NCBI GenBank assembly: GCA_963713975.1
Contig: OY970218.1
Span: 3,488,001 to 3,552,000 of the forward strand
DNA from: an uncultured Chloroflexia bacterium
GTDB lineage: Bacteria; Chloroflexota; Limnocylindria; Limnocylindrales; CSP1-4
DNA length: 64,000 nt
Direction: 5' to 3'
In this document: piece after piece, positions 1 to 7,708 of the stretch
Layout: every line of letters starts with the position of its first letter
How positions within the stretch are numbered: position 1 is the stretch's first letter
The notes under the pieces: generated by a model
Told to the model about the DNA's origin: nothing
Database searches by the model: none
The model's input: the letters and a program-made list of their open reading frames with translations, nothing else
Made by a program: the position numbers and the translations under genes

Positions 1-1137
1 GCGGCCCTCTACGCGGCGGCCGACGTCGCCTGGGTCGCATCGCTGCGGGACGGCATGAACCTCGTCGCCAAGGAGTTCGTGGCGTGCCAGCAGGACGGCA
101 AGGGCGTCCTGCTGCTGAGCGAGTTCGCCGGTGCGGCGGGCGAGATGGGCGAGGCGGTCCGGGTCAACCCGTACGACGAGACGGGATCGGCCGCCGCCCT
201 GGAGCGTGCCCTCACGATGGCCGAGGACGAGCGCCGGGAGCGGCAGGCAGCGCTGCTCCACCGGATCACGACGAATACGGCCGTCGCCTGGGCGGAGCGT
301 TCCGTGGAGGATCTGCGGCGCACGGTCGGCGGACGGGCGCTGGGCTCCGGGCCGATCCCGGAACCGCCGCTGCGGGATGTCCGACACGCATTCGCCTCGG
401 CGAGCCATCGCATCTGCTACCTGGACTACGACGGCACGTTGGTCCCTCTTGCCGCCCGCCCGGCAGATGCTGCACCCGGCCCGGCCATCGCCGAGATCCT
501 GGGAGCCCTCGCGCGGAAGCGTGGGACGACGATCGTGATCGTCTCGGGCCGACCGGCAGGCGACCTGTCCTGCTGGTTCGGCCACCTGGACGGCATCTGG
601 CTCGCGGCCGAGCATGGCGCCCTGCTCCGGGCCCCGGGCGATCCCGAGTGGCGGTCGCTCCGACCGGGCGCCGACGGGGAATGGAAGGCCCGCGTTCGAC
701 CGGTGCTCGACCAGTTCGCCGCCCGCGCCCCGGGCAGCACCGTCGAGGAGAAGGAATACGCCCTCGCCTGGCACTTCCGGCTTGTCGAGCCCGAGTTCGG
801 GGACTGGCTGGCCAACGAGCTCGCGATGACGCTCGACCAGTTGCTGGCCGGCACCGAGCTCGCGGTGCTCCGAGGGAACAAGGTGGTCGAGGTCCGGTTC
901 GCGTGGGCGAACAAGGGCGAGGTGGCGGCCCACGTCCGTGCGTCGGCTCCCCCGCCGGAGTTCGAGCTGGCGATCGGGGACGACCGGACCGACGAGGACC
1001 TCTTCGAACGCCTGCCGGATGACGCCTGGACGATCCACGTGGGACCCGGCCAGACACGGGCCCGGTTCCGCCTGGCCACCCCGGCACCCGCGGTGGCCTT
1101 GCTTGCCAGCCTCGCCGGCAGGAGCGCCCGGAGATGA
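1..1137 (+). CDS. otsAB: Bifunctional trehalose-6-phosphate synthase/phosphatase, 5'-truncated by the window edge
   Basis: Frame is open from base 1 ([32 protein letters not shown] = GT20 C-terminus), followed by a HAD phosphatase domain ([27 protein letters not shown]). Confidence 0.93.
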
Positions 1138-1138
1138 A

Positions 1139-1179
1139 GAAGCCGGCCCCGGGAGCCCGAAGGCTCCGGGACCGGCTTC
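1139..1179. terminator. GC-rich hairpin between convergent genes
   Basis: GAAGCCGG...CCGGCTTC inverted repeat immediately after the otsAB stop and 12 bp from the iolA stop. Confidence 0.6.
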
Positions 1180-1191
1180 GACCGCGAAGTT

Positions 1192-2718
1192 CTAGCTGTT
1201 GCCGGGGAAGACGAGGCTCAGCGGCCCCTGCTTGCCGGGCTCCGGCCAGCGCTCGGTGACCATCTTCTGCTGGGTGAAGAAGCGGACGCCGTCCTCACCG
1301 CGCATGGCGAGGTCGCCGATCGCGGACTCCTTGGAGCCCGAGAAGCTCATGTAGCCCGCGGGCACCGGGATCGGCACGTTGACGCCGATCATCGGGACCT
1401 CGACCTCGAGCTTGAAGCGCCGCGCGGCGCCGCCGTCGGTCGTGAACACCGCCGTGCCGTTGGCGTACTTGTGGTCGTTGATGAGCTTCAGGCCCTCGTC
1501 GAAGGTGTCCGTGTGCACGATGCCGAAGACGGGGCCGAAGATCTCCTCCTGGTAGATCTTCATGTCCGGGGTGACGTTGTCGAACAGCGTGACGCCCAGG
1601 AAGAACCCGTCCGGGTTGGGCCCGACGAACGTACGGCCGTCCACGAGGAGCTCGGCGCCCTCGGCCTCGCCGACGTTGATCCAGTTGATCACCGACTGGC
1701 GGTGCTCATCCGTGTAGATGGGGCCCATGTCGACGCCCGGCTCCATGCCGTCGCCGATCTTGAGCCGTGCGATCCGCTCCATGATCTTGGGCTTGAGGCG
1801 CTCGGCGGTGTCACCCACCGCGACCATCAGCGTCTGGGCCATGCAGCGCTCGCCGGCCGAGCCGAAGCCCGCCGCGACCGCCGCGTCCGCGACCAGGTCC
1901 ATGTCCGCGTCGGGCAGGACGAGCATCGCATTCTTGGCGCTGGTGTAGGACCCGACGCGCTTGCCGCGCTTGGTGCCCTCCTCGTAGACGTAGCGGCCGA
2001 CGGCCGTCGAGCCCACGAACTGGATCGCCTTGATGCCCTTGTGCTCGACGATCGCCTTGACCGCCTCGCGGCCGCCGTAGACGACGTTGAACGTGCCGTC
2101 GGGTCCGCCCGCCTGCGTCCACAGCTCGGCCTGGAGCTGCGTCGCACCCGGCGTGTGGGAGGACGGCTTGAGGATCACCGTATTGCCGCACATCAGTGCG
2201 ATCGGGTAGATCCACGTGGGGACCATGACCGGGAAGTTGAAGGGCGCGATCGCCGCGACGACGCCAAGCGGCTGACGCAGCGTGAACGCGTCGACCTTGG
2301 TCGACACGTTGGGCGTCATCATGCCGGAGAGGTGAACCGGCAGGCCGCACGCGAAGTCGATCGTCTCAATGCCGCGGAGGACCTCGGCGAGGGCATCCGG
2401 GAAGGTCTTGCCGTGGTCGCGCGTGATGAGCGCGGCGAGGTCCTCGCGGTGCTGGTACATCAGGTTGCGGAACTGGAAGAAGATGTTCGAGCGCGCGATC
2501 AACGGCATGTCGCGCCAGGCGGGGAATGCAGCCTGGGCCGCCTCGACCGCGGCGTCAACCTCGGCCACTCCGCCGCGCGGGACCCGGGCGAACACCTGGC
2601 CCGTCGCCGGGTTGGTGATGGGGCCTGTGTTCTCGGCCAAGACCTCGACGGCCGTGCCGTTGATGTAGTGGGACAGGATCGGCAAGACCGCCGTCTGCTC
2701 CCGGGTCTCGATCGCCAT
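1192..2718 (-). CDS. iolA: CoA-acylating (methyl)malonate-semialdehyde dehydrogenase
   Basis: ALDH fold: PFNFP, LKPS, FVGST, GSAGERCMA catalytic Cys, EEIFGPV, YANGTAVFT, VNVPIPVP; lies near iolB. Confidence 0.9.
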   Translation of the reverse strand: MAIETREQTAVLPILSHYINGTAVEVLAENTGPITNPATGQVFARVPRGGVAEVDAAVEAAQAAFPAWRDMPLIARSNIFFQFRNLMYQHREDLAALITRDHGKTFPDALAEVLRGIETIDFACGLPVHLSGMMTPNVSTKVDAFTLRQPLGVVAAIAPFNFPVMVPTWIYPIALMCGNTVILKPSSHTPGATQLQAELWTQAGGPDGTFNVVYGGREAVKAIVEHKGIKAIQFVGSTAVGRYVYEEGTKRGKRVGSYTSAKNAMLVLPDADMDLVADAAVAAGFGSAGERCMAQTLMVAVGDTAERLKPKIMERIARLKIGDGMEPGVDMGPIYTDEHRQSVINWINVGEAEGAELLVDGRTFVGPNPDGFFLGVTLFDNVTPDMKIYQEEIFGPVFGIVHTDTFDEGLKLINDHKYANGTAVFTTDGGAARRFKLEVEVPMIGVNVPIPVPAGYMSFSGSKESAIGDLAMRGEDGVRFFTQQKMVTERWPEPGKQGPLSLVFPGNS

Positions 2719-2765
2719 GTGTGCTACTCCTCCGCGGAAACTGGTGCTGGACGCCGTGGTTGATC

Positions 2766-3866
2766 TCAGGCGGACTTGAGGTCCGGATTGGGCATCATGA
2801 TGTCGCGCACGACGCCCTGTAGATCGTGGTACGACTGTACAAAGCCGCGCAAGGTCCGCGCGGTCGCGCCGAAGCCCGCGAAGTCATCTGGTGACAGGCC
2901 GTCCGGCTCATATGCGCGGCGGAAGTCCGGCACCCGGGCCAGCAGGTCATCGACCAGGTGCTGGTCCACAGGCACGTCGATCCGCGACACAGGGTCGATG
3001 CCCGAGTTGTTGAAGCGGACCTGCCACGGGTACGGCATCGTGAGCACGACGTCGCCACCCACGAGTTCGGTCCAGTGCAGCCGGTGGCGGTAGGCCGCCA
3101 CGAGCAACCGGGTCCGGTAGCCGCGCTCCTGGAAGATCCCGTACGCACGCTTGAAGGCGGCGATGCCGGCCCAGTTTGCGGCGGCCGGGTCGAGCGCGAT
3201 GTCGTCCTTCTCGACCAGGACCTTGATCCAGTCGTCGAGTCGGCCGATCATCATCGAGCAGACCGGGCTGAACTTGCTGCTGTCGCCACCGGCAGCCTCG
3301 AAGCGCTTGATCCCGCGCTCCACCGCCTCGGCGGCGGCGATGGACTGGGCGACCGTGAACACCACCGTGATGTTGGCGACAACGCCCCGGGCCGTCGCGT
3401 CCTCGACCGCCTGCAGGCCGGCGGCCGTGCACGGGAACTTGACCTGGATGTTGGGGGCGAGGGTGTTGAAGTGCACCGCCTGGTCGGCCATTCGCGCCGG
3501 GTCCCGGTAGTTCGCGGGGTTGGTCTGGAGCGACAGTCGTCCCTTCATGCCGTCGTGCGCGTCGAAGACCGGCTCGAGGATCCCGGCACCACGGGCGCCC
3601 ATCTCCTCGATCAGCGCCCAAGTGAGCTCGACCTCGGACCAGGTCGGGTTGGTCGCGATCATCTCGCGGACCCGCGGGACCCAGTGGTCCTTCTCCTTCT
3701 TCATCACCTCCCCCACGATGACGGGGTTGGAGGTGGCGCCGGTACCGCCGCGCTCGACTGCGTAGGCGAGCTCGACGACCGCGCAGGAGTCATTCCAGAA
3801 GTCGGTCGGAGTGGACTCGACCATCCGCAGGAGCGGGCTGTCGATTCCGGCGGTAGTGGTCGTCAT
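2766..3866 (-). CDS. Transaldolase/FSA-family class I aldolase with atypical active-site residues
   Basis: FWNDS, ATSNP, Schiff-base Lys in IQVKFP, NITVVF, IGRLDD. Start reassigned to ATG 3866, which has a GGAGA RBS. Confidence 0.85.
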   Translation of the reverse strand: MTTTTAGIDSPLLRMVESTPTDFWNDSCAVVELAYAVERGGTGATSNPVIVGEVMKKEKDHWVPRVREMIATNPTWSEVELTWALIEEMGARGAGILEPVFDAHDGMKGRLSLQTNPANYRDPARMADQAVHFNTLAPNIQVKFPCTAAGLQAVEDATARGVVANITVVFTVAQSIAAAEAVERGIKRFEAAGGDSSKFSPVCSMMIGRLDDWIKVLVEKDDIALDPAAANWAGIAAFKRAYGIFQERGYRTRLLVAAYRHRLHWTELVGGDVVLTMPYPWQVRFNNSGIDPVSRIDVPVDQHLVDDLLARVPDFRRAYEPDGLSPDDFAGFGATARTLRGFVQSYHDLQGVVRDIMMPNPDLKSA

Positions 3867-3991
3867 AGGTTCTCCGTTGCCTGGGAGTGGGCGGGCGCAC
3901 CGACCGTCACTATAATCGATGATCGTTGATCTTTTCGCAAGGAGCGCCGCGTCCCGGCCACGCAGGTCGCGGCGCACCGCACGCCCGCATC

Positions 3992-4879
3992 CTAGTCGGA
4001 CACCTTGGGCGCCTCGGGACTCCAGTTCATGAGCCACGCGTGGTCCGGGTCGATGGTGAAGTGCCAGGCCCGGTTGGGCCCGGCCATGATGTTGAGGAAG
4101 TAGCAGTCGTAGCCTGCGGGCACGCCCACGGGGTGGTAGCCCTCGGGCACCAGCACGAGGTCCCCGTCCATCGGCGTCATCGACTCGTCGAGGGACCGAT
4201 CAGGGGTGTAGACGCGGGCGAACGCGAACCCCTGCGGCTTGGCGAACTTGTAGTAGTAGAGCTCCTCCAGGCGCGCCTCAACCGGCGGATCCTCCGTGTC
4301 GTGCTTGTGGGGTGGGTAGCTGGACCAGTTGCCACCCGGGGTGTATGCCTCGAACGAGATGAGGCGACCGGCCTCGGCGCCCGGCGGGAGCAGGTGGTGG
4401 ATCCGCCGGGTCGTGTTCCCCTCACCACGTGTCTCCACCAGGATGTCCCCGGATTCGATGAGCGCGGTGCGCTGGACCGGACCGCCGGGGGCGGCGGCAA
4501 TGCCGACCAGGGCCTCGGTGTCCGCGGTGACCAAGATCTCCTGACCGGGCGCCACGAGCACCACGGGGGCGGGCGGGCCGTCGAACACCGTCATCCGCGA
4601 GCCCGCCACCCCGAAATCGCGGTCCCCGGCCTGTACTCGGGCGTAGCCCTCGAGCAGCAGGACGAGGCGCTCCTGATCGTCGGGCTCGCGGGTCACCACC
4701 TGCCCCGGGGCCAGGCGGTAGACGTGGAAGGAGACGTAGTCCCATCCGGCCGAGGCGGGATCGATCCCACACACGAGGCCGTCGGGCCCCGCGTCGGCCG
4801 CGCGGCGGAGGAGGCGCCGCGCGGCCGACGAATAGGCGGAGCCCGGACCGCCATTCCCTGTGGTCAAGGGCAAAGTCAT
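3992..4879 (-). CDS. iolB: 5-deoxy-glucuronate isomerase
   Basis: GNWSSYPPHKHD, LEELYYY, VPEGYHPV, YFLNIMAGP. ATG 4879 has a GGAGG RBS. Confidence 0.95.
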   Translation of the reverse strand: MTLPLTTGNGGPGSAYSSAARRLLRRAADAGPDGLVCGIDPASAGWDYVSFHVYRLAPGQVVTREPDDQERLVLLLEGYARVQAGDRDFGVAGSRMTVFDGPPAPVVLVAPGQEILVTADTEALVGIAAAPGGPVQRTALIESGDILVETRGEGNTTRRIHHLLPPGAEAGRLISFEAYTPGGNWSSYPPHKHDTEDPPVEARLEELYYYKFAKPQGFAFARVYTPDRSLDESMTPMDGDLVLVPEGYHPVGVPAGYDCYFLNIMAGPNRAWHFTIDPDHAWLMNWSPEAPKVSD

Positions 4880-5035
4880 GGCTGGTGGTCCTCCGCTGTC
4901 CGGGCCGGTCGCCGGTCCCCGGCGGATGGGCCGTCCGCCAGCCTGCTCCCGATGTGGCTCGGCCGATGGTCGGTCGCGCCGGACCATCGTTCCGGCACGG
5001 TCGCCCCGTGAAGGCCACACCCGGTCGGCCCTCCC

Positions 5036-5049
5036 GGCAATCGATTACA
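5036..5049. promoter_or_regulatory. Candidate LacI-family operator upstream of iolB
   Basis: AT-rich near-palindrome GGCAATCGATTACA with a central CG; a related TATAATCGATGAT lies at 3911-3923 upstream of the aldolase gene. Confidence 0.4.
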
Positions 5050-5128
5050 TGGTGCAATCTTGGCCTACCGGGACGGCATCGTCAAGCACCTCCGGCGGGG
5101 AACGGCGCGGCTGGGGCGGGGGGCACGC

Positions 5129-5191
5129 GGCGGCATCGGGCGGCCGCCGGGCGGCATCGGGCGGCCGCCGGGCGGCATCGGGCGGCCGCCG
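5129..5191. repeat. 21-bp tandem repeat, 3 copies
   Basis: GGCGGCATCGGGCGGCCGCCG three times with no spacers. Confidence 0.9.
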
Positions 5192-5564
5192 GGGGCCCGA
5201 GTCTCGCTCACAACCGCTGGACTGCCCGCTGATGGCGAGCAGCGTCCCCGCTGAAGGGGCTCCGCGCCTCGTTTCGCTCGCTGATGGCGAGCGAAACAGG
5301 GATCTGCGTGGATGGGTGGGCCGTCAGGCGAGCGGCGGAGGTCAGAGAACGACGAGTCCGTTCGCCCCTGGCAGGCACCCGCCTCACACGATCGGACCAG
5401 CCGACCCCCGGCTGCCGCGGGCAGAGCATTCGCCGAGGACGAACGCTCCGCTTCGAACGGGCGGGTGTAGAGCGAGCAGCACAGCCGCCCGCGGGGCCAC
5501 GCAGTGGGCCGCCCGCGGGGCGACCCGAAGGGCCGCCCCGCTCGAGCGGGACCGGAGTCGCGGA

Positions 5565-6878
5565 TCAGGCCTTGCGGGACTTGCCGTCCTCGGTCCGCAT
5601 ACGGCAGGCGTTGCTGGACCGGAAGTAGCGCTCCTTGCGGGCCATCTCGGGCATCGGGGCCGCGTACTGGTACTGCTCCGCGGAGAGCTCCGAGACGAGG
5701 CCATTGAGCTCCGTGTCCGAGCCGGCGTAGGCGCGGACTCGCTTGCGGACGCCCTCGAGCACGCCACGCGCGTCCTCGTAGCGACCCTGGCGGTTCAGGT
5801 GCACCGCGTCCTGGCGGGCTCGCTCGGCGAACACCCGGGCGACGACGCGATCCACCTCGACATCGCGTGGCTGGGCGTCGTTGGCGCCGTGGCCCGCATA
5901 GGCCCAGGCCACCGAGACCGGCTCGAGCGCCGGCCGGGCCGCGTCGAACGCGCCGTCGCGGTCCCCCACTCGGACATGCACGCCCACCTCGCGGTCCACC
6001 TCGCCGAAGTCGAAGACGAGGTGCAGCACGAGGGAGAGCAGCTGACCCGAGACCATGTCACCGAGGAAAACCCGGGCCCGGCCCGCGGTCTGCTCGACAC
6101 GGAACGGCGAGAGCGAGTCAACCCGGACGGACTCCGGCAGGACCAGCTCCAGGACGACGTCGCGGGCCACGACGTCCAGGGTCTCGCCCACCTCGGACGT
6201 GATGTGGTCGCGCATCTGGGCCACGTCACCCGCGAAGTAGAAGTGGCCGCCCCCGTTGTCGGCCATTGCCTGGAGCAGCGACTCGTCGAAGTCCGTGCCC
6301 ACGCCGAAGGTGCTGGTGGCAACCCCCCGCCGGCGCAGCTCGAGCGCCAGTCGGGCCAGCTCGCCGTGGTCGGTGACACCCTGGTTGGCAAGGCCGTCCG
6401 TGAGCAGCAGGACGCGGTTGACGCCCTCGGGTGCCAGCCCGGCCGCGGCCTGCTCGCAACCGGTCAGCCATCCTGCGTGCAGGTTGGTGCTGCCGCGGGG
6501 CTCGACACCGGCGAGTCGCCCGGCCGCCTCGCTGCGGGCCTGTGGGCTGGCCATCATCCCTGCGACTGCCACGTCCACGCGGTCGTCGTAGGTCACGACG
6601 GAGAACCGGTCCTCGGGCTCCAGGCGATGGATGGCCTCCAGGGTCGCCTGCTTGGCGAGGGACAGCTTGTCGCGTCCGCCCATAGAGCCCGACCGGTCGA
6701 GCACGAAGGCGAGGTTGACGGGTGGCCGACGTCGCGCCGGATCCGGTGCGACGGTGGGTGCGGTGACGTCGACGAGCAGGTAGCGCACGCTCCGGCCATG
6801 CGCACGGATCAGGCGGCGGTCCGGCCGGACCACGAGTCCGGGGTCGACCAGGCGGTCGGTGTTGTTGTGCTGGGTCAC
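5565..6878 (-). CDS. vWA domain protein (YfbK/CLCA-like)
   Basis: MIDAS motif VLDRSGSM, GSTNL, LLLTDGLAN, FGVG.DFDE.LL; no signal peptide. Confidence 0.9.
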   Translation of the reverse strand: MTQHNNTDRLVDPGLVVRPDRRLIRAHGRSVRYLLVDVTAPTVAPDPARRRPPVNLAFVLDRSGSMGGRDKLSLAKQATLEAIHRLEPEDRFSVVTYDDRVDVAVAGMMASPQARSEAAGRLAGVEPRGSTNLHAGWLTGCEQAAAGLAPEGVNRVLLLTDGLANQGVTDHGELARLALELRRRGVATSTFGVGTDFDESLLQAMADNGGGHFYFAGDVAQMRDHITSEVGETLDVVARDVVLELVLPESVRVDSLSPFRVEQTAGRARVFLGDMVSGQLLSLVLHLVFDFGEVDREVGVHVRVGDRDGAFDAARPALEPVSVAWAYAGHGANDAQPRDVEVDRVVARVFAERARQDAVHLNRQGRYEDARGVLEGVRKRVRAYAGSDTELNGLVSELSAEQYQYAAPMPEMARKERYFRSSNACRMRTEDGKSRKA

Positions 6879-7016
6879 GATGGGCCTCCTTCTCGATGGC
6901 TGGTCGAGGCCCGGATGGGGCGGGTCTCACGGTCCGGCGTGGCTCGTACGAGCGGGCTCGCCGGATGCGGTTGGGTTGTCCTGGGGGGCGGGGTGGCAGC
7001 CGATGCCGACGGGCGG

Positions 7017-7673
7017 TCAGTGCTCCTCTTCGAACAGCTCGCGCGCAATCCGCTCAAGCTGGTCGATGCGCTTGTTGCTGCGGCGGTCCAGCGGGCGCCT
7101 GACGTGGATCTCGACATCCGACGTGATGGTCAGCCGCTCCCACGTGGAGCGATCGGGTTGCGTGTGATGGTCCGGCGCCGGGCCACTTGCCGGCGGTTCG
7201 GGCGACGACCGCTGGGCAGCCATCGCGGGTGGGGCTGGGGCAGCCGATCGGGCGGATGGCGGAACCGTATCCAGCGTCATCGTCCGCCGCAGCAGCGCGG
7301 TCTGACGGCCGGGTTGCTGCTCGATGGTCGAGGCCACGCCCGACTGGTCCATGAGCGATCGGATGAACGCCAGCGTGTCGTCCGGATCCCGCGACGGTGC
7401 CATCGCTGGTGAGCCCAGCAGCTCGGCGGCGTCCACGACCTCCTGGTCCCCCATCCGGTCCAGGCGCGACCGGATCTCGGCCAGCGGCAGGTGGTCCCGC
7501 TGCAGGCGCTTGATGATCCTCAGGCGGGCGAGGTGGCCCTCGCCGTAGCGCGTGGACGGACCGGCCGCTTCGGGCGACGGCAGCAGTCCCTGGGCGACGT
7601 AGTAGCGCACCGTGCGCGGCGTCACGTCCGCGAGACGGGCCAGGTCGCTGAGGGTGTACGGGTCGTCCGGCAT
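7017..7673 (-). CDS. MerR-family HTH transcriptional regulator
   Basis: YTLSDLARLADVTPRTVRYYVAQGLLP...Y...HLARLRIIKRLQ. Confidence 0.88.
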   Translation of the reverse strand: MPDDPYTLSDLARLADVTPRTVRYYVAQGLLPSPEAAGPSTRYGEGHLARLRIIKRLQRDHLPLAEIRSRLDRMGDQEVVDAAELLGSPAMAPSRDPDDTLAFIRSLMDQSGVASTIEQQPGRQTALLRRTMTLDTVPPSARSAAPAPPAMAAQRSSPEPPASGPAPDHHTQPDRSTWERLTITSDVEIHVRRPLDRRSNKRIDQLERIARELFEEEH

Positions 7674-7679
7674 GGGCCG

Positions 7680-7708
7680 ATTGTGACACCATCACCGTCT
7701 GCTGTCAA
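7680..7708 (-). promoter_or_regulatory. Sigma70-type promoter for a leaderless merR-vWA transcript
   Basis: Minus strand: TTGACA-17 bp-CACAAT with extended TG, 6 nt before the ATG; a TGACA...TGTCA inverted repeat overlaps it. Confidence 0.65.

Follow-up and report, generated by a model that had tools for sequence, protein, structure and literature searches.

Gene organization of the iolB-iolA locus

The sequence considered in this work, a stretch of 64,000 nucleotides referred to below as the window, covers positions 3,488,001 to 3,552,000 of contig OY970218.1 (assembly GCA_963713975.1) from an uncultured Chloroflexia bacterium. Close to its left edge, three co-directional genes of the minus strand are found in the order iolB-TalL-iolA, TalL being the name given here to a transaldolase-family protein whose gene is lodged between two genes of myo-inositol catabolism. 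The iolB gene (3992-4879) encodes a 5-deoxy-glucuronate isomerase of 295 amino acids (aa) that reaches 295.1 bits with TIGR04378 (cut-off 205) and 290.3 bits with the Pfam family KduI/IolB, and it is the sole such match in the genome; its start is the ATG at 4879, in an open frame that extends to a GTG at 5020. It is separated by 125 bases (3867-3991) from the TalL gene (2766-3866), whose product, a Gln/Met-type transaldolase-family protein of 366 aa, scores 116.3 bits with Pfam PF00923 (cut-off 27). After a second spacer of 47 bases (2719-2765) comes iolA/mmsA (1192-2718), encoding a CoA-acylating (methyl)malonate-semialdehyde dehydrogenase of 508 aa (TIGR01722, 613.4 bits for a cut-off of 448.5; Pfam Aldedh, 454 bits). 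These profile scores and coordinates confirm the transaldolase-fold gene that a sequence-only reading of the window had placed between iolB and iolA. Among relatives, the spacer between iolB and TalL measures 0-130 bases at most loci. A scan of positions 900-5700 of the window, in DNA of 71% G+C, gave neither promoter-like sites nor, on the minus strand, terminator-like ones.

Family, fold and active site of TalL

In the Pfam scan, TalL matched PF00923 only, over residues 23-287, with no homology to class II fructose-bisphosphate aldolases (PF01116) or to DUF2090 (PF09863). All nine matching NCBIfam models of transaldolases (TAL) and fructose-6-phosphate aldolases (FSA) stayed far under their cut-offs, the best being NF002881 (111.4 bits against 367); the values were 70.7 bits for TIGR00876 (cut-off 233.75), 42.3 for TIGR00874 (cut-off 396.2) and 45.8 for the FSA equivalog TIGR00875 (cut-off 245.95), the last over residues 98-182 only. 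With such scores, an annotation pipeline is limited to the term "transaldolase family protein", which is the name borne by the relatives, and a look-up of TalL in the protein atlas returned only generic "transaldolase" clusters. The AlphaFold2 model computed from the 51-sequence alignment described below has a mean pLDDT of 96.1 and is a TIM barrel of the transaldolase type, matched by Foldseek with a probability of 1.00 and TM scores of 0.79-0.83 to 7bbx, 7oey, 3r5e and 3clm. The best of these matches are the transaldolases of N. gonorrhoeae and C. glutamicum, at 20-23% identity.

The active site was compared using 51 sequences, 52-94% identical to that of the window and originating from Chloroflexota, Actinomycetota, Acidobacteriota and Spirochaetota. 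Residues D26, T45, N47, S112, Q114, K143, T167, M206, R209 and R260 are invariant in all 51, N165, Y259, H261 and H264 are at least 90% conserved, and position 204 is Ser or Thr (S204 in the window). The Schiff-base lysine K143 (strand 4), together with D26 (strand 1), N47 (strand 2) and T167 (strand 5), aligns with the C. glutamicum transaldolase 3r5e and with the transaldolases of the host. In the alignment to 3r5e, the motif GRLSLQTNP lies over GRVSIEVDP, Gln114 occupying the catalytic Glu position, and the second Met of SMMIGR (M206) lies over the second Phe of SFFVSR; both motifs, picked out by eye in the sequence-only reading, had thus been identified correctly. The three canonical transaldolases of the host carry E, N, S and F in the columns of Q114, N165, S204 and M206. 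The TalB sites used for comparison, which we take to be Glu96, Asn154, Ser176, Phe178, Arg181 and Arg228, follow a numbering drawn in part from the titles of PDB entries. R209 aligns cleanly; R260 is matched with TalB Arg228 only through a single pairwise alignment, that to 3r5e. The hallmarks of a classical transaldolase (EC 2.2.1.2), namely the catalytic Glu, the Phe at TalB 178 and a score above the model cut-off, are all absent from TalL.

According to PMC13259622, the matching sites of the E. coli FSA hold Gln59, Thr109, Ala129 and Tyr131, the tyrosine being a proton shuttle that forms a water-binding triad with Gln59 and Thr109. The Gln and the Thr of this triad are present in TalL and the Tyr is replaced by Met206. 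Residue by residue, TalL resembles FSA at the Gln and transaldolases at the donor pocket (Asn165, Ser/Thr204), and it differs from both at the switch position (Met). The earlier opinion that the enzyme fits neither classic TAL nor FSA therefore stands for the Met and has to be amended for the Gln, which is the FSA state at the transaldolase Glu position.

In a tree of 59 rows (the 51 aligned sequences, five TalL from genomes devoid of iolD and three canonical outgroups), TalL and its relatives cluster together with full support, a very long branch dividing them from the canonical copies, and iol-linked clades are scattered over the TalL family. The wider Gln-type clade comprises 320 representatives at E <=1e-30. 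Among 32 distant full-length relatives of 31-47% identity, Gln and Lys are both retained in 31, positions 165, 204 and 206 vary, and the Met is kept in 18. We regard TalL as a branch of Gln/Met type that is new in the transaldolase/FSA family.

Inositol pathway genes in the host genome

The host genome, estimated from marker genes to be 92% complete, is a single contig of 3.62 Mb with about 71% G+C; its closest relatives are metagenome-assembled genomes (MAGs) labelled Chloroflexia, Chloroflexota or Candidatus Limnocylindrales. The genes of the upper inositol pathway are located 2-16 kb past the left edge of the window (genome 3,471,980-3,486,721). They comprise iolG (382.7 bits, cut-off 355), iolD (886.4 bits, cut-off 715) and two TIM barrels for which IolE is the only match; with 189.9 and 141 bits for a cut-off of 290, these IolE-like genes are divergent. 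A LacI regulator and an ABC sugar transporter accompany them. The iol cluster as a whole (iolG, IolE-like, iolD, iolB, iolA) spans about 21 kb.

No iolC over the cut-off and no iol-linked IolJ or DUF2090 protein was detected in this genome. The 14 weak PfkB matches to IolC_N reach 124.9 bits at best (cut-off 300) and all lie outside the window, as do the DUF2090 and class II aldolase matches, in agreement with the sequence-only reading, which had reported neither iolC nor iolJ there. The sole DUF2090 match (35.7 bits, cut-off 27) is found at 75.6 kb of the genome and corresponds to a LacD-like aldolase scoring 242.5 bits as a tagatose-1,6-bisphosphate aldolase (cut-off 184); together with the genes around it (68-78 kb), which encode two PfkB kinases, a DeoR regulator and a dedicated ABC transporter, it makes up an independent locus for a ketose. 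Two class II aldolase (PF01116) matches map to 1.48 and 2.78 Mb. Since three canonical transaldolases are encoded elsewhere in the genome, the pentose phosphate pathway does not depend on TalL.

TalL has a paralogue in the same genome, TalL2 (56% identity), encoded directly after a second iolD copy at 774-777 kb. This second iol-like cluster (G000:C1:771195-778289, equivalent to L017:7195-14289) lies outside the window and is without an iolB of its own; it groups an IolG-like gene (335.9 bits, just under the cut-off of 355), an IclR regulator, iolD2 (850 bits), TalL2 and a GFO/IDH/MocA oxidoreductase. Two further sugar loci exist. In G000:C1:1293553-1296586, some 1.2 kb separate a canonical transaldolase from a PfkB-like gene, and in G000:C1:1480758-1484063, one of the three DhaK genes of the genome is found about 1.5 kb from a class II aldolase.

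The genes flanking the locus are of a different nature. To the left, positions 1-1137 of the plus strand hold the C-terminal part of a bifunctional trehalose-phosphate synthase/phosphatase (OtsA-OtsB fusion) that continues leftwards (NF011071, 391.9 bits for the truncated piece; T6PP, 119.2 bits, cut-off 68); this gene is wedged between an iolE-like gene and the convergent iolA. Upstream of iolB, a von Willebrand factor A-domain protein and a MerR-family regulator (5568-7691, minus strand) show no evident link to iol functions. The third-position G+C of the TalL gene is 0.81, against 0.87-0.92 in its neighbours, and the bin 2001-4000 has the lowest G+C of the window (0.673); this lower G+C may indicate a foreign origin or another codon usage.

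Gene neighbourhoods of TalL relatives

A set of 108 relatives in species-representative genomes yielded 80 loci, 78 of them with a callable TalL frame (L046 and L073 being without). Neighbours within 10 kb were called by BLAST with 17 reference proteins of the host genome, so that the counts cover these families alone, and many of the 78 loci are short contigs. Within this distance, iolB was found at 48 of the 78 loci, which represent four named phyla, iolD at 36, an IolA-like gene (>=38% identity), after or near TalL, at 41, and an IolE-like gene at 33. Either iolB or iolD was present at 51 loci, and at least one of these four genes at 58, a strong enrichment of the subfamily in iol clusters that answers the question of its co-occurrence with iolB and iolA. 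Chloroflexota, Actinomycetota and Acidobacteriota are represented among the loci, whose gene order varies by lineage: iolB-TalL-iolA in Limnocylindria, TalL-lacI-iolB-iolD-iolA-iolE-iolG in Anaerolineae, and lacI-iolB-TalL-iolE-iolG in Terriglobia. The linkage between TalL and iol genes is for this reason not a single inherited block. Contigs of relatives assembled from RNA libraries cover these genes and bridge iolB and TalL as well as TalL and iolA, a weak support given that a contig is no proof of a transcript and that DNA may be present in such libraries. None of the sequencing runs contains more than 0.10 of the sampled words.

One clade, 65-72% identical to the TalL of the window (L053-L066, for example L053:6042-13685 and L057:6302-12808), nests beside the clade of the window in the tree and has neither iolB nor iolD nearby. 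Its conserved divergent neighbours are a PEP-utiliser protein, a GntR/FCD regulator and a protein of 320-337 aa without an assigned family. The PEP-utiliser protein is 600-690 aa long, carries a C-terminal swivel domain and resembles PigC, RedH and PpsA, all below the cut-offs. On the downstream side, these loci have either an IolA sharing 79-80% identity with that of the window, or a gluconate-5-dehydrogenase/KduD-like short-chain dehydrogenase (SDR) with a metallo-beta-lactamase-fold protein. Such a locus could serve another source of a 5-keto-2-deoxy sugar acid.

Natural fusions

A search restricted to longer proteins produced eight fusions. The clearest, P0270 (657 aa), combines a complete IolB (292.3 bits, cut-off 205) with a complete TalL (56% identity, residues 1-364). 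The reverse arrangement, TalL followed by IolB, is seen in P0276 and P0275 in a less complete form (178.6 and 94.5 bits). IolE precedes TalL in P0129, where it exceeds the cut-off (341.4 bits against 290), and an IolE-like domain (164-170 bits) does so in P0272 and P0273; P0271 joins to TalL an N-terminus without an assigned family. Two architectures, with IolB and with IolE, recur at different identity levels. Gln114 and Met206 are retained in P0270, P0271, P0272, P0273 and P0129, and position 114 is Arg in P0275 and Ala in P0276 according to the BLAST alignment. Two candidates were set aside: P0274, in which part of TalL is continued by the first 126 positions of the MMSDH model, is an apparent read-through of TalL into iolA, and P0149 looks like a read-through or frameshift product. 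P0242 associates a peptidase M24 domain with TAL.

Distribution of TalL and iolC

The respective distributions of TalL and iolC were compared in 401 Chloroflexota genomes that are at least 80% complete, TalL being called at >=49% identity (two borderline cases at 37-38% are uncounted). In this sample, iolB is present in 91 genomes and TalL in 34, and iolB accompanies TalL in 25 of these 34, versus 66 of the 367 others. The additional requirement of iolD leaves 46 genomes and drops about 33 that have an IolB-like gene but no iolD. The latter are probably not inositol pathways, since the loci sampled among them are devoid of iol core genes (L114, L115, L117, L120 and L121) or lie beside a 2-keto-3-deoxygluconate kinase (L118); the contig of L122 is too short to judge. 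Among the 46 genomes with the upper pathway, iolC exceeds the cut-off in 27 and reaches 294.7 bits, beside iolB, in one more; TalL is present in 13, both genes in none and neither in five. The 13 TalL genomes belong to 4 family codes and the 27 iolC genomes to 12, with no overlap. The pattern being structured by lineage, a simple test would overstate the complementarity.

A second lineage, the class of the Gaiellaceae MAG G031, was represented by 201 genomes, nine with TalL and 14 with iolD. Its iolD genomes carry iolC in one of five cases when TalL is present (G455) and, over the cut-off, in seven of nine when it is absent; in two neither gene is counted, and one match stands at 285.7 bits. 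In 50 of the 80 locus genomes, taken from all phyla and checked for iolC, four were over the cut-off. TalL and iolC are thus almost mutually exclusive among genomes with the upper pathway, although this rule is not absolute.

Several variants of the pathway were encountered in the course of this survey. Twelve more genomes have TalL and iolB without an iolD over the cut-off. In the four that were opened (L125-L127 and L130, corresponding to G327, G375, G383 and G187), a ThDP enzyme 28-31% identical to IolD adjoins TalL and IolB, and also IolA in L125, which suggests a parallel pathway for another cyclitol. At L104 (G040:C40:49797-53768), a true iolC (385.5 bits) stands beside a LacD-like aldolase 43% identical to that of the host at 75.1-76.5 kb, and such free-standing LacD-like aldolases may act on 2-deoxy-5-keto-D-gluconate (DKG) 6-phosphate in some Chloroflexota. 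In G329, one of the five genomes with neither gene, a split transketolase (the N-terminal subunit followed by the pyrimidine/C-terminal subunit) heads an operon tkt-tkt-iolG-iolB-iolD-iolG-iolE on the minus strand (L113:4049-11840, G329:C1). It recalls the sulfo-TK pathway named in the title of PMC11659671 and may represent a third mode of DKG breakdown, of transketolase type, which suggests that pentose-phosphate-type enzymes were recruited to the DKG step more than once.

Proposed function and mechanism

From the gene order, the protein family, the active-site pattern, the lack of iolC, the co-location with the upper pathway, the distribution and the fusions presented above, we infer that TalL would cleave unphosphorylated DKG between IolB and IolA and would take the place of IolC plus IolJ or DUF2090 in myo-inositol catabolism, a reading to which we assign a probability of about 0.7. 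A role between these two enzymes is suggested by the order iolB-TalL-iolA, which follows that of the reactions. This interpretation, already put forward in the sequence-only reading, is the best-supported one, and the census of iolC and iolJ, the co-occurrence with iol genes and the alignments all turned out in its favour.

In the proposed pathway, IolG, IolE and IolD, encoded to the left of the window, would produce 5-deoxy-glucuronate, which IolB would isomerise to DKG. The latter resembles fructose: it is a ketose whose C1 hydroxyl is free, and its carboxylate occupies the place of the phosphate in fructose 6-phosphate. Numbered from the keto group, DKG is a 5-deoxy-fructuronate, with the fructose configuration at C3 and C4. 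The donors of the transaldolase family have a free C1 hydroxyl, bound via Asn and Ser, and are cleaved between C3 and C4 via a lysine Schiff base; we know of no TAL/FSA family member that accepts a C1-phosphorylated donor. In TalL, the donor-pocket residues Asn165 and Ser/Thr204, together with the two Arg of the anion site, would fit a ketose whose C1 hydroxyl is free and which carries its anion at the distal end. Position 204 corresponds to Ala129 of FSA, which lines the donor pocket according to PMC13259622. Lys143 would form a Schiff base with the keto group of DKG and the C3-C4 bond of the ketose would be broken, while the two conserved Arg could hold the carboxylate of DKG or of malonate semialdehyde in the phosphate's stead. 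Malonate semialdehyde would then be released and converted by IolA to acetyl-CoA, no ATP being spent ahead of the cleavage. By comparison, the products of the canonical phosphorylated route are given as dihydroxyacetone phosphate and malonate semialdehyde (PMC6741124 and PMC9007349), which places the phosphate added by IolC on C1 of the ketose.

The dihydroxyacetone unit left on the enzyme would be either transferred or released. If cleavage takes place, the odds lie slightly on the side of a transfer to an aldose acceptor, for example to glyceraldehyde 3-phosphate with formation of fructose 6-phosphate, and a hydrolysis to free dihydroxyacetone has somewhat less than an even chance. Met206 offers no proton to release the C3 unit and leans to transfer, as in sulfofructose transaldolase; against transfer, the acceptor half-reaction would then lack an acid. 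The gene content is of no help here, since DhaK is present in nine of the 13 TalL genomes and in 16 of the 27 iolC genomes, the four TalL genomes without DhaK all have a glycerol kinase, and these DhaK and GlpK counts do not separate the two types. The presence of Gln instead of Glu might be explained by the repulsion that a Glu would exert on the substrate carboxylate, and the carboxylate of DKG, in beta position to the C4 hydroxyl, might take up the proton of that hydroxyl. The full scheme, comprising at least three interchangeable lower inositol routes that would parallel those of sulfoglycolysis (IolC with IolJ or DUF2090, TalL, and possibly the split transketolase of G329) along with a substrate-assisted retro-aldol reaction, in which the carboxylate would stand in for the catalytic Glu throughout the Gln-type clade, and a transfer of dihydroxyacetone to glyceraldehyde 3-phosphate, is tentative and, taken all together, rather doubtful.

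Weighing of the alternatives

A number of observations weigh against the cleavage of DKG by TalL. Twenty of the 78 loci have no iolB, iolD, iolA or iolE in reach; some of these are short contigs, and nine are members of the 65-72% identity clade, whose neighbours differ. Similarly, nine of the 34 TalL genomes of the Chloroflexota sample lack iolB. The complementary pattern tracks taxonomic families and may in part reflect shared ancestry; the five genomes with neither gene mean that iolC is not the sole alternative, and the MAGs are 80-100% complete, so that incompleteness can hide genes. Both TalL and iolC occur in G455; G040, G044 and G045 combine iolC with a TalL devoid of iol neighbours, and G035 has a TalL iol cluster in addition to a separate canonical iolB-iolC-iolD cluster. 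Nearly all the fusions are singletons from metagenome contigs, and each of them alone could be a read-through error. No cultured carrier of TalL was found in the cluster look-ups. Finally, TalL is devoid of the usual acid-base residue, since both the Glu of transaldolases and the Tyr of FSA are missing.

As a first alternative, TalL would take part in inositol-related catabolism on another substrate (for example the ketose acid of another cyclitol or deoxy-sugar acid, or a side reaction), DKG being handled by an unrecognised enzyme. The 65-72% clade with its PEP-utiliser protein, GntR regulator and KduD-like SDR in place of iolB, the pairing of TalL and IolB with a distant IolD-like ThDP enzyme in some genomes, the position of TalL2 after iolD2 without an iolB, and the TalL genomes without iolB all speak for it. 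This explanation is nevertheless unlikely, because in the clade of the window TalL is placed exactly between iolB and iolA in a genome with no other bridge between them, and because a complete IolB-TalL fusion exists (P0270). Furthermore, the distal-site residues Y259, R260, H261 and H264 are at least 90% conserved over all the clades of the 51-sequence alignment, which argues for one kind of substrate, and the IolA that often follows TalL in the 65-72% clade, being 79-80% identical to that of the window, points to the same aldehyde product. It is less probable still that TalL replaces IolJ only and cleaves DKG 6-phosphate made by an unrecognised kinase, for instance a PfkB. Candidates for such a kinase can be named, among them the 14 weak IolC_N-like matches of the host, PfkB genes of 190-235 bits in the TalL genomes G423, G190 and G217, and, at Terriglobia loci, a fragment of a PfkB gene some 3.5 kb upstream of TalL. 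However, the phosphate added by IolC on C1 conflicts with the free C1 hydroxyl of TAL/FSA donors, for which TalL has kept the Asn and Ser/Thr of the donor pocket; in the BLAST with the reference proteins, PfkB-like matches are limited to three of the 78 loci, all in Terriglobia and at least 3.5 kb from TalL, and none of the eight fusion proteins contains a kinase domain.

The PfkB kinases and the LacD-like class I aldolase at 75-78 kb might also be regarded as a distant IolC/IolJ pair, TalL then being an accessory. The aldolase does exceed the DUF2090 cut-off, IolC_N is the top NCBIfam match of the adjacent kinase (124 bits), and in G040 a related aldolase stands beside a true iolC. This is hardly to be expected, though, given that the aldolase is recognized far better as a tagatose-1,6-bisphosphate aldolase and that the kinase scores equally as a ribokinase or a tagatose kinase. 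Two kinases, a DeoR regulator and a dedicated ABC transporter follow the logic of a ketohexose bisphosphate route, the locus is 0.7 Mb and 3.4 Mb away from the two iol clusters, and such LacD-like matches are discarded by the authors of GapMind when calling DUF2090, as indicated in PMC9007349. As for an ordinary pentose-phosphate transaldolase caught in an iol operon by chance, the TAL_FSA match in Pfam, the transaldolase fold and the name given to the relatives would be consistent with it. This idea is scarcely tenable in view of the invariable replacement of the catalytic Glu by Gln, the failure of all equivalog models, the three canonical E/N/S/F copies of the same genome, the very long and fully supported branch that sets TalL apart from them, and an iol linkage that recurs in four phyla and in fusions. 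The cleavage of DKG by TalL therefore remains the preferred reading.

Relation to known systems

The closest analogue is the sulfo-TAL pathway with its 6-deoxy-6-sulfofructose transaldolase, described in Bacillus aryabhattai/megaterium (PMC7491151; PDB 8bc2-8bc4). In that pathway, as reported there and as proposed for TalL, an isomerase makes a fructose analogue with a non-phosphate anion at C6, a transaldolase-family enzyme cleaves it without phosphorylation, and the anionic C3 aldehyde produced is passed to a dehydrogenase. The sulfofructose transaldolase (SftT) differs by its length of about 220 residues and by the sulfonate of its substrate, whereas TalL has 366 residues and would act on a carboxylate. 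The two sequences match with only 28 bits (E ~1e-5) over residues 111-188, so that the enzymes are analogous and not orthologous.

The combination of IolC with either IolJ (class II) or DUF2090 (LacD-like, class I), as presented in PMC9007349, covers the same step between IolB and IolA and yields malonate semialdehyde plus a C3 unit, as would be expected of TalL. It does so with two unrelated folds, ATP being spent first and dihydroxyacetone phosphate being formed, whereas TalL is a single enzyme of transaldolase fold. FSA shares with TalL the Gln (Gln59 and Gln114, respectively), the Schiff-base Lys and the Asp, Asn and Thr, and acts on donors with an unphosphorylated C1, as is proposed for TalL. 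It differs by Tyr131 in place of Met206, by Ala129 in place of Ser/Thr, and by its 220 residues against 366 (phmmer E ~2e-4). The long transaldolases (3r5e of C. glutamicum, 3clm of N. gonorrhoeae) are the best sequence match of TalL (E 4.9e-21), belong to the same length class and share the Asn165 and Ser204 sites; at 20-23% identity, TalL departs from them by the changes of Glu to Gln and Phe to Met and by a context outside the pentose phosphate pathway.

A search of the full-text literature, outside of which lie subscription journals and supplements, found no paper on the cleavage of DKG from inositol by a transaldolase or FSA-type enzyme, and, among the papers listed, those on "transaldolase-dependent" catabolic pathways all concern sulfoquinovose. 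The aldolases known for this step are IolJ, a similar Phaeobacter protein (PGA1_c07220) and DUF2090 according to PMC9007349, and a genome survey counts iolC as an essential core gene (PMC9430895).

Biological significance

Because iolC is treated as essential and TalL is absent from the tools, gene clusters of the TalL type are scored as incomplete. The use of inositol or phytate-derived carbon by the groups that carry TalL would hence be underestimated, 13 of the 46 Chloroflexota genomes with the upper pathway being of this type. As far as can be judged from sequences, this would be a known pathway in a new variant, and the enzyme behind it a new branch within a known family. If the proposed function is true, it would represent a new enzyme activity and an ATP-sparing variant of a textbook pathway in uncultured Chloroflexota, Actinomycetota and Acidobacteriota of soils, sediments and wetlands. 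It would also extend the transaldolase family to a sugar-acid substrate and open a possible biocatalytic route between dihydroxyacetone donors and 3-oxo acids. To our knowledge, the large Gln-type clade of 320 representatives has no characterised member, and TalL would then become the founding one.

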